Of a stretch of 64,000 bases of DNA, positions 34,802-35,414 are shown piece after piece. This DNA is from Candidatus Aenigmatarchaeota archaeon (GTDB taxonomy: Archaea > Aenigmatarchaeota > Aenigmatarchaeia > PWEA01 > JACQIF01), in NCBI GenBank assembly GCA_016432325.1, contig CP066684.1:32001-96000 (forward strand), given 5' to 3'. The notes under the pieces are model-generated. The model searched no databases, was not told the DNA's origin, and was given only the letters and a program-made list of their open reading frames with translations. Position numbers and translations under genes: made by a program. How positions within the stretch are numbered: the first letter of the stretch is position 1; every line of letters begins with the position of its first letter.

Positions 34802-35037
34802 TGAGCATCATACGCGCGAAGGAGATGAGGTCGATGGAAGAGCGGGAACTTCGCAAGCGCGTCGACGAGTTGAGACTCGAGCTTACGAAATCGCAGGCTC
34901 AGGTGGCCATAGGCGGCGCGCCGCCGAATCCGGGCAGGATAGGGGAGATAAAGAGAACAATCGCACGCGCGTTGACGATAAGGAGGGAGCGCGCATCAAA
35001 GTCACAATCGCAGAAACCCGCAAAACGAGGTGCATGA
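34801..35037 (+). CDS. rpl29: 50S ribosomal protein uL29
   Basis: MSIIRAKEMR..ELRLEL..NPGRIGEIKRTIARALT. Confidence 0.95.
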   Translation: MSIIRAKEMRSMEERELRKRVDELRLELTKSQAQVAIGGAPPNPGRIGEIKRTIARALTIRRERASKSQSQKPAKRGA

Positions 35038-35081
35038 AACATGGTTTCATACCTCCTCGCTTCGAAAAAATCCAGAGGTGA
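35034..35081 (+). promoter_or_regulatory. two-hairpin leader plus 15-codon uORF (MKHGFIPPRFEKIQR) before aIF1
   Basis: ATGAAAC-atg-GTTTCAT then ACCTC..GAGGT stem pairing the SD; ATGA overlap with rpl29 stop. Confidence 0.6.
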
Positions 35082-35087
35082 CAAGAA

Positions 35088-35414
35088 ATAGCAGAAGTAT
35101 GCCCCAACTGCGGGCTTCCAAAGGCTCTGTGCGTCTGCGAGACGATGGCCAAGGAGAGCGAGAAGATAAAAATCTCCGTGGAGAACAGGCGATTCGGCAA
35201 GGACGTTACGATAGTCGAAAACGTCCTTGAGGGCATGAATCCCCAGATGATAACGAAGACGCTAAAGCAGAAACTCGCGTGCGGCGGGACATACAAGAAC
35301 GGCCGCATAGAACTGCAGGGCGACCACCTGAGACGCGCCGAGGAAATCCTCGTCTCACTGGGGTTCGACAAGGCGCAGATAGAGAAAGGCGGCAGAAAAA
35401 GGATGGGCCGGTGA
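35088..35414 (+). CDS. sui1: translation initiation factor aIF1/SUI1 (ATA start)
   Basis: (I)AEVCPNCGLPKALCVCE Zn-knuckle, RRFGKDVT, KLACGGT, IELQGDH; in-frame TGA at 35079. Confidence 0.93.
   Translation: MAEVCPNCGLPKALCVCETMAKESEKIKISVENRRFGKDVTIVENVLEGMNPQMITKTLKQKLACGGTYKNGRIELQGDHLRRAEEILVSLGFDKAQIEKGGRKRMGR

Follow-up and report, generated by a model that had tools for sequence, protein, structure and literature searches.

The window analysed here is a stretch of 64,000 nucleotides from the genome of Candidatus Aenigmatarchaeota archaeon (G000), which is tiny, uncultivated and represented by one 875-kb contig. The gene for the initiation factor aIF1 (SUI1) is present in G000 as a single copy and lies in a ribosomal-protein operon with the gene order uS3-uL29-aIF1-Rpp29-uS17-uL14-uL24. 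The uL29 stop codon TGA at 35035-35037 overlaps the ATG at 35034 of a short upstream open reading frame that we termed uORF1 (ATGA), and the aIF1 stop codon TGA at 35412-35414 is overlapped by the ATG of Rpp29 (Table 1). The SUI1 domain of the aIF1 product scores 66.1 bits against a Pfam gathering cutoff of 25.5 (PF01253, E 4e-18), and the solved structure of M. jannaschii aIF1 (4MO0) is matched with an E value of 4.6e-28, with query residues 4-101 aligned to residues 2-100 of the chain. An N-terminal zinc knuckle with the pattern CX2CGLPX3C(V/I/M/A)C has been reported for 64% of archaeal aIF1 proteins (PMC6237735), and the protein encoded here carries one as well. Among the neighbors, the ORF translations of uS3 (33866-34801) and uL24 (36683-37201) are extended at the C-terminus, and each extension contains a CxxC...HxxxxH motif (CPVCSKDYDNERSLKIHIGQRH in uS3, CPLCSETFENNAAANVHVTEKH in uL24).

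Table 1. Genes and sequence features at the uL29-aIF1 junction (window coordinates).
Feature	Position	Strand	Evidence or remark
uL29 gene, ATG to TGA	34801..35037	+	Pfam PF00831, E 6e-16; sequence
Left direct repeat GAGGTG	35027..35032	+	second copy at 35075-35080, offset 48 nt; pairs with ACCUC 35051-35055 in the predicted fold
48-nt insertion, one copy of the two-hairpin repeat TGAAAC..GTTTCA found throughout the genome	35033..35080	+	count of repeat core, flanking repeats
uORF1 (15 codons; frame of aIF1)	35034..35081	+	stop TGA inside the Shine-Dalgarno sequence, 6 nt before ATA
Inner stem-loop AUGAAAC-AUG-GUUUCAU of hairpin 1	35034..35050	+	fold prediction; z = -2.8 for 100 nt
uORF2 (16 codons; former frame of uL29)	35041..35091	+	stop TAG overlaps ATA (ATAG)
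UCGCUUC, predicted weak partner of the Shine-Dalgarno sequence	35057..35063	+	7 bp, two of them G-U
Shine-Dalgarno sequence GAGGTGA	35075..35081	+	6 nt before the start; complementary to the 16S 3' end GGATCACCTCC
ATA, inferred aIF1 start codon	35088..35090	+	sole near-cognate codon between in-frame stop and knuckle
aIF1/SUI1 coding sequence, 108 codons and TGA	35088..35414	+	PF01253, E 4e-18; 4MO0, E 5e-28
Zinc knuckle CPNCGLPKALCVC	35100..35138	+	fits the pattern CX2CGLPX3C(V/I/M/A)C given in PMC6237735; none of the four Cys varies among the 22 genomes
First in-frame ATG, not the start	35145..35147	+	just one of the 22 genomes has ATG at the aligned codon
RNase P subunit Rpp29	35414..35698	+	PF01868, E 9e-25; ATG overlaps the aIF1 TGA

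The aIF1 frame is closed upstream by TGA at 35079-35081, after which the codons CAA GAA ATA (35088) GCA GAA GTA lead to the first cysteine codon TGC (35100). No ATG, GTG or TTG occurs in this frame between the stop and the zinc knuckle. The original prediction had described this arrangement accurately and all of its coordinates are correct: the knuckle lies upstream of the first ATG at 35145, TGA 35079 leaves just CAA-GAA-ATA, GAGGTGA stands 6 nt before the ATA, and a uORF of 15 codons, described as coupled to rpl29, ends inside the Shine-Dalgarno (SD) sequence. The alignment places residue 4 of the query opposite residue 2 of the 4MO0 chain, so that the ATA codon is homologous to Met1. Gene callers that are restricted to ATG, GTG and TTG start instead at ATG 35145 and produce an aIF1 of 89 amino acids that lacks the knuckle (P0006). 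That this is the true product, or that the assembly has ATA in error where the genome reads ATG, seems hardly credible to us. The knuckle is conserved as protein while its third codon positions are free: in the 22 genomes of the order the third position varies in 15 of 15 codons, the first in 5 and the second in 3, and pairwise comparison gives 1614 synonymous versus 678 nonsynonymous codon differences. Judged by these substitution patterns, the zinc knuckle is translated and selected at the protein level; at the position of ATG 35145, by contrast, ATG is rare among these genomes (Table 1). An assembly error is at odds with the recurrence of ATA, ATC or ATT (collectively AUH) at this position in 22 separate assemblies and three metagenome contigs. 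The ATA itself is kept in five sequences from different datasets, namely G000, G001 and the three metagenome contigs, the latter with about 79% identity to the aIF1 of the window, and all five read ATAGCAGA; a sequencing error is therefore excluded.

Since uORF1 is in frame with aIF1, readthrough or recoding of UGA 35079 could in principle yield an N-terminally extended aIF1 that begins at ATG 35034. Support for this comes from L171, a close relative (L171:1501-1875, Logan SRR27109257) in which TGG replaces this TGA, so that the uORF frame continues into aIF1 and a fused ORF of 124 amino acids is called (P0003). For the window we consider an extended product very improbable. UGA is the ordinary stop codon of both aIF1 and uL29, and a sense reading of TGA was ruled out on the same grounds. 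The extension would come from an inserted repeat that is missing in three close relatives, and elsewhere in the order there are often two stops in front of AUH (TGA TAA, TGA TGA or TGA TAG), or uL29 sits in another frame. Initiation at the ATA is strongly supported by comparative sequence evidence, namely its conservation over the order, its restriction to this gene, the right spacing from the SD sequence and its correspondence to Met1.

The order comprises 22 species genomes, each with one aIF1 match. The survey of start codons in relatives that the original prediction had suggested as a check yielded ATA, ATC or ATT at the aligned position in all 22 species. In 18 of them the stretch from the in-frame stop to the first cysteine codon contains no ATG, GTG or TTG. 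The other four have an ATG or GTG just in front of the first cysteine codon and nowhere else in this stretch; it lies about 15 nt from the SD sequence and could serve as an alternative start. As ATA, ATC and ATT all encode isoleucine, the lack of a third-position G is statistically inseparable from conservation of the amino acid; the argument for AUH as start is based on the upstream stops. In family f5, TAA or TAG directly precedes the ATC and no other candidate start is left.

We have extended the survey to the class by adding 67 further sampled genomes to the 22 of the order. AUG starts were found in 44 of these 89 genomes, mainly in most of the other families, with L141 and L152 counted as AUG (ATG at -7). 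AUH starts are present in 25 genomes, that is the 22 of the order, two of family f25 and one ambiguous genome of f7. CUG accounts for 15 of the 89 and GUG or UUG for four, and in one genome the start type is unclear. The CTG-start genomes belong to f9 (L111, L113, L116, L029), f19 (L114, L117-L119, L125, L127), f28 (L139, L163), f31 (L132, L148) and f16 (L025). Where leucine occupies the start position, which is the case in these 15 genomes, the codon is always CTG behind an SD sequence and never another leucine codon, and the CTG of f28 follows immediately on a TAG. Such exclusive use of CTG fits a start codon and not an internal residue. On a gene tree of 89 aIF1 sequences and 97 columns the start labels need 13 changes, of which well-supported branches force about three; with so few columns the resolution is too poor for a count of origins, and the labels were set by an automatic rule that mislabelled L141 and L152 (ATG at -7).

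Beyond the phylum most of the aIF1 loci surveyed start with ATG, and those of the Methanomethylicia start with TTG. All 13 loci of the Methanomethylicia type (L043, L047, L049, L055, L058-L060, L064, L065, L075, L076, L079 and L091) have a TTG four codons before the first cysteine, behind AGGTGA, which may be a milder form of the weak-start theme. Two Asgard MAGs, L045 (Candidatus Baldrarchaeum yapensis) and L081 (Hodarchaeaceae), have an aIF1 without canonical in-frame start; L045 appears to use ATA and L081 CTG, both at -4, and each has an out-of-frame ATG nearby.

The weak start is conserved and peculiar to aIF1. At 21 related loci the neighboring genes uS3, uL29, Rpp29, uS17, uL14 and uL24 have a canonical start where the N-terminus is expected in 118 of 118 cases; for aIF1 this holds at four of the 21. 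In G000 as a whole, ATG is enriched 4-9 nt after RGGTGA, where ATA, ATC and ATT occur at background level. A scan of the 875 kb anchored on SD sequences found no other clean gene with AUH behind an SD, and among the cases of AUH or CTG behind an SD sequence only aIF1 combines the absence of an upstream canonical codon with a distant downstream one.

The SD sequence in front of the ATA is complementary to the 3' end of the 16S rRNA of G000 itself, GGATCACCTCCT. Eighteen genomes of the order have GAGGTGA, AAGGTGA or GAGGTGG separated from AUH by a spacer of 6 nt; in the remaining four of the 22, the SD sequence differs or the spacer is longer. In 15 of the 22 the uL29 stop overlaps the AUH or lies within 14 nt of it, often as the TGA inside GAGGTGA. 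Reinitiation in H. volcanii works at such distances, with the stop overlapping the start or within about 13 nt of it, and has disappeared at about 22 nt (PMC10666635). Going by distance, uORF1 (6 nt) and uORF2 (overlap) in the window would both be suitably spaced for termination-reinitiation. A different rearrangement of the junction occurs in L008 (G011) and L010 (G017), where the SD and AUC region of aIF1 is tandemly duplicated about 50 nt upstream (in L008, for instance, AAAAACTTTGAGGTGATAAAAAATCTCTGAAATA). These two genomes belong to a different family of the order, and an independent insertion or duplication seems to have taken place at their uL29-aIF1 boundary.

The two uORFs of the window begin in a 48-nt segment at the junction of uL29 and aIF1. 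When these 48 nt are deleted in silico, the uL29 tail reads ...KRGDKK and its TAG overlaps the ATA (ATAG), as it does in G001 and L173. The insertion is missing in G001, L172 and L173 and present in L171. Its core, TGAAAY-N2-7-RTTTCA, has 42 copies in G000 versus 0.8 expected, and the copies sit before and inside unrelated genes; many are flanked by direct repeats of 6-9 nt that lie 48-57 nt apart. As the insertion is a repeat copy and missing in relatives, it is therefore a recent insertion and not a conserved control element of aIF1. Further copies in the window include those at 36222-36281 (plus strand, before uL14), at 52985-53017 (minus strand, before proS), near 14700 and near 40172. Many copies are built as X-gca-TGAAAC..GTTTCA-t-X'-spacer with GGTGA-X, X standing for a duplicate of the start region of the downstream gene and X' for its complement; the matching X' is unexplained by a plain target-site duplication. 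An Rfam scan of 34600-35500 at E <= 1 matched no family.

According to the original prediction the SD sequence is sequestered by pairing with ACCTC, and the hairpin together with the uORF forms an extra structural layer of control. The first idea held up in part. ACCTC (35051-35055) is complementary to the SD sequence, yet the predicted folds pair ACCUC with the upstream GAGGU (35027-35031) and the SD sequence with UCGCUUC. ACCTC-SD pairing was rejected as the main structure, since it is not the minimum free energy fold in contexts of 56, 86 or 100 nt. The second idea finds no support as far as a device specific for aIF1 is concerned, because the element is a genome-wide repeat that G001, L172 and L173 lack, the stop of the uORF is lost in L171 (TGG), and the predicted SD pairing differs from the proposed one and is unseen in relatives.

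A dedicated second regulatory layer, in which the SD sequence stays masked until translation of the uORF opens it, nevertheless has several features on its side. In G000 the SD sequence is predicted to be nearly fully paired, with an unpaired probability of 0.02 compared to 0.32 +/- 0.14 for shuffled flanks, and the 100-nt fold has a z score of -2.8. Moreover, uORF1 ends inside the SD sequence and uORF2 in the ATAG overlap with the start. We still regard such a layer as unlikely. The 48 nt are one of about 42 repeat copies before or inside unrelated genes, three relatives (G001, L172, L173) do without them, ACCUC pairs with the upstream GAGGU and not with the SD sequence in the minimum free energy fold, and for the other 21 genomes of the order the predicted accessibility of the SD sequence stays near the shuffled-flank mean, within about 1.6 standard deviations. 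L171 shares the insertion without the uORF1 stop, and its SD sequence is predicted to be open (unpaired probability 0.54). In L171 the ATG-started aIF1 of 124 amino acids carries an 18-residue extension derived from the repeat, and this frame, if used, could bypass the weak ATA start; an ORF equivalent to uORF2 is open there as well.

It is a matter of speculation that the inserted copy may relay ribosomes to the ATA via uORF1 or uORF2. A broader version, to which we give only a slim chance, sees the 48-nt repeat as a portable translational cassette that brings an ATG placed on the upstream stop, an anti-SD sequence and a duplicated SD or start region, with a uORF relay that opens the masked SD sequence. 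If this were true, the uORF relay would replace direct stop-start coupling wherever the repeat lands. At aIF1 it would be stacked on the near-cognate start, and aIF1 synthesis would depend on upstream translation as well as on the aIF1 level.

Weak starts on the genes of initiation fidelity factors have been described before. The bacterial infC gene for IF3 has an AUU start and is subject to translational autorepression, as PMC4705826 summarizes from Butler et al. 1987 (PMC305013). The aIF1 gene resembles infC in that the gene of a fidelity factor itself starts with AUH behind an SD sequence, that the odd codon is conserved in relatives and that the logic of negative feedback, for aIF1 assumed by analogy, would be the same. 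However, the folds of IF3 and aIF1 are unrelated, initiation here proceeds via aIF2-GTP-Met-tRNAi, and aIF1 follows uL29 in a ribosomal-protein operon with an upstream stop adjoining the start. Eukaryotic eIF1 (SUI1) has an AUG in poor context and is autoregulated, as PMC6237735 and PMC4705826 report with reference to Ivanov et al. 2010 (PMC2964218). Here the proteins are homologous (PF01253) and share the fidelity role, and in both cases a suboptimal initiation site on the own mRNA is thought to sense the level of the factor. While eIF1 relies on AUG and Kozak context in a scanning mechanism, the aIF1 start is non-AUG and positioned by an SD sequence. Compared to the canonical archaeal aIF1 of M. 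jannaschii (4MO0), the protein is the same, including the zinc knuckle and an N-terminus three residues before the first cysteine; the difference lies in the start codon, which is ATG in most of the wider archaeal loci surveyed (TTG in Methanomethylicia) and ATA, ATC or ATT throughout the order studied here. Like infC and eIF1, the aIF1 gene has a suboptimal start of its own, in this case near-cognate, which is conserved and gene-specific.

We think it rather probable that aIF1 is translated from AUA 35088 and that this weak start feeds back negatively on aIF1 synthesis. The strong SD sequence GAGGUGA would position the 30S subunit 6 nt upstream of the AUA, and the initiator Met-tRNA would read the AUA with a mismatch at the third position. 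By destabilizing initiation complexes at near-cognate codons, aIF1 would then lower its own synthesis when it is abundant and allow more of it when it is scarce. Ribosomes are probably supplied locally by an upstream ORF whose translation terminates a few nucleotides ahead of the start codon; this ORF would be uL29 in most relatives and, after the 48-nt insertion, one of the two short uORFs in the window. Work on S. solfataricus, as related in PMC4705826 and PMC6237735 (Hasenohrl 2009), indicates that 30S subunits bind AUG and AUU mRNAs in the absence of aIF1 and AUG mRNAs only in its presence. Autoregulation via the weak start is plausible because Sulfolobus aIF1 discriminates against AUU in vitro and because of the analogy to infC and eIF1, with the reservation that S. 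solfataricus is a crenarchaeon distant from the Aenigmatarchaeota. The initiator tRNA of G000 was not identified with aragorn, and matches to a regex of initiator features were no better than noise. Aragorn reported three tRNAs in G000 without intron search and 12 with introns allowed, several of these introns being long or unusual; tRNA genes are difficult to recognize in this genome.

The weak codon might instead act statically, fixing a low ratio of aIF1 to ribosomal proteins without sensing the aIF1 level. We judge this less likely, though well worth considering: aIF1 sits inside the ribosomal-protein operon right after uL29, where a lower level of the factor may suffice, reinitiating ribosomes may depend less on aIF1, and many families of the class have ATG at the same position. 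However, if aIF1 discriminates against near-cognate codons in the way that PMC4705826 relates, feedback would follow automatically from such an anatomy. It also speaks against a purely static role that weak starts recur on aIF1 in several lineages and in 0 of 118 neighbor-gene cases in the order.

Full-text literature searches retrieved no paper that describes an archaeal aIF1 as autoregulated or as starting at a non-AUG codon, and a 2020 review (PMC7531240) is silent on autoregulation, AUU, near-cognate codons and feedback. NCBI records such as P0004 (MAEVCPNCG) and P0009 (MANCPDCG) already place the methionine at the AUH, silently, while other gene callers shorten aIF1 (for example P0006, 89 aa). 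For annotation this means that callers limited to ATG, GTG and TTG lose the zinc knuckle of aIF1. The idea of a feedback through the weak start is open to direct testing with existing archaeal toeprinting and reporter systems.

Feedback on start stringency through a weak start on the mRNA of a fidelity factor is established in bacteria for IF3 and in eukaryotes for eIF1. An AUH or CUG start that is conserved and specific to the aIF1 gene would carry such logic into the third domain, the archaea. Such control would join a eukaryote-type protein with a bacteria-type device, the combination of an SD sequence and a non-AUG codon.
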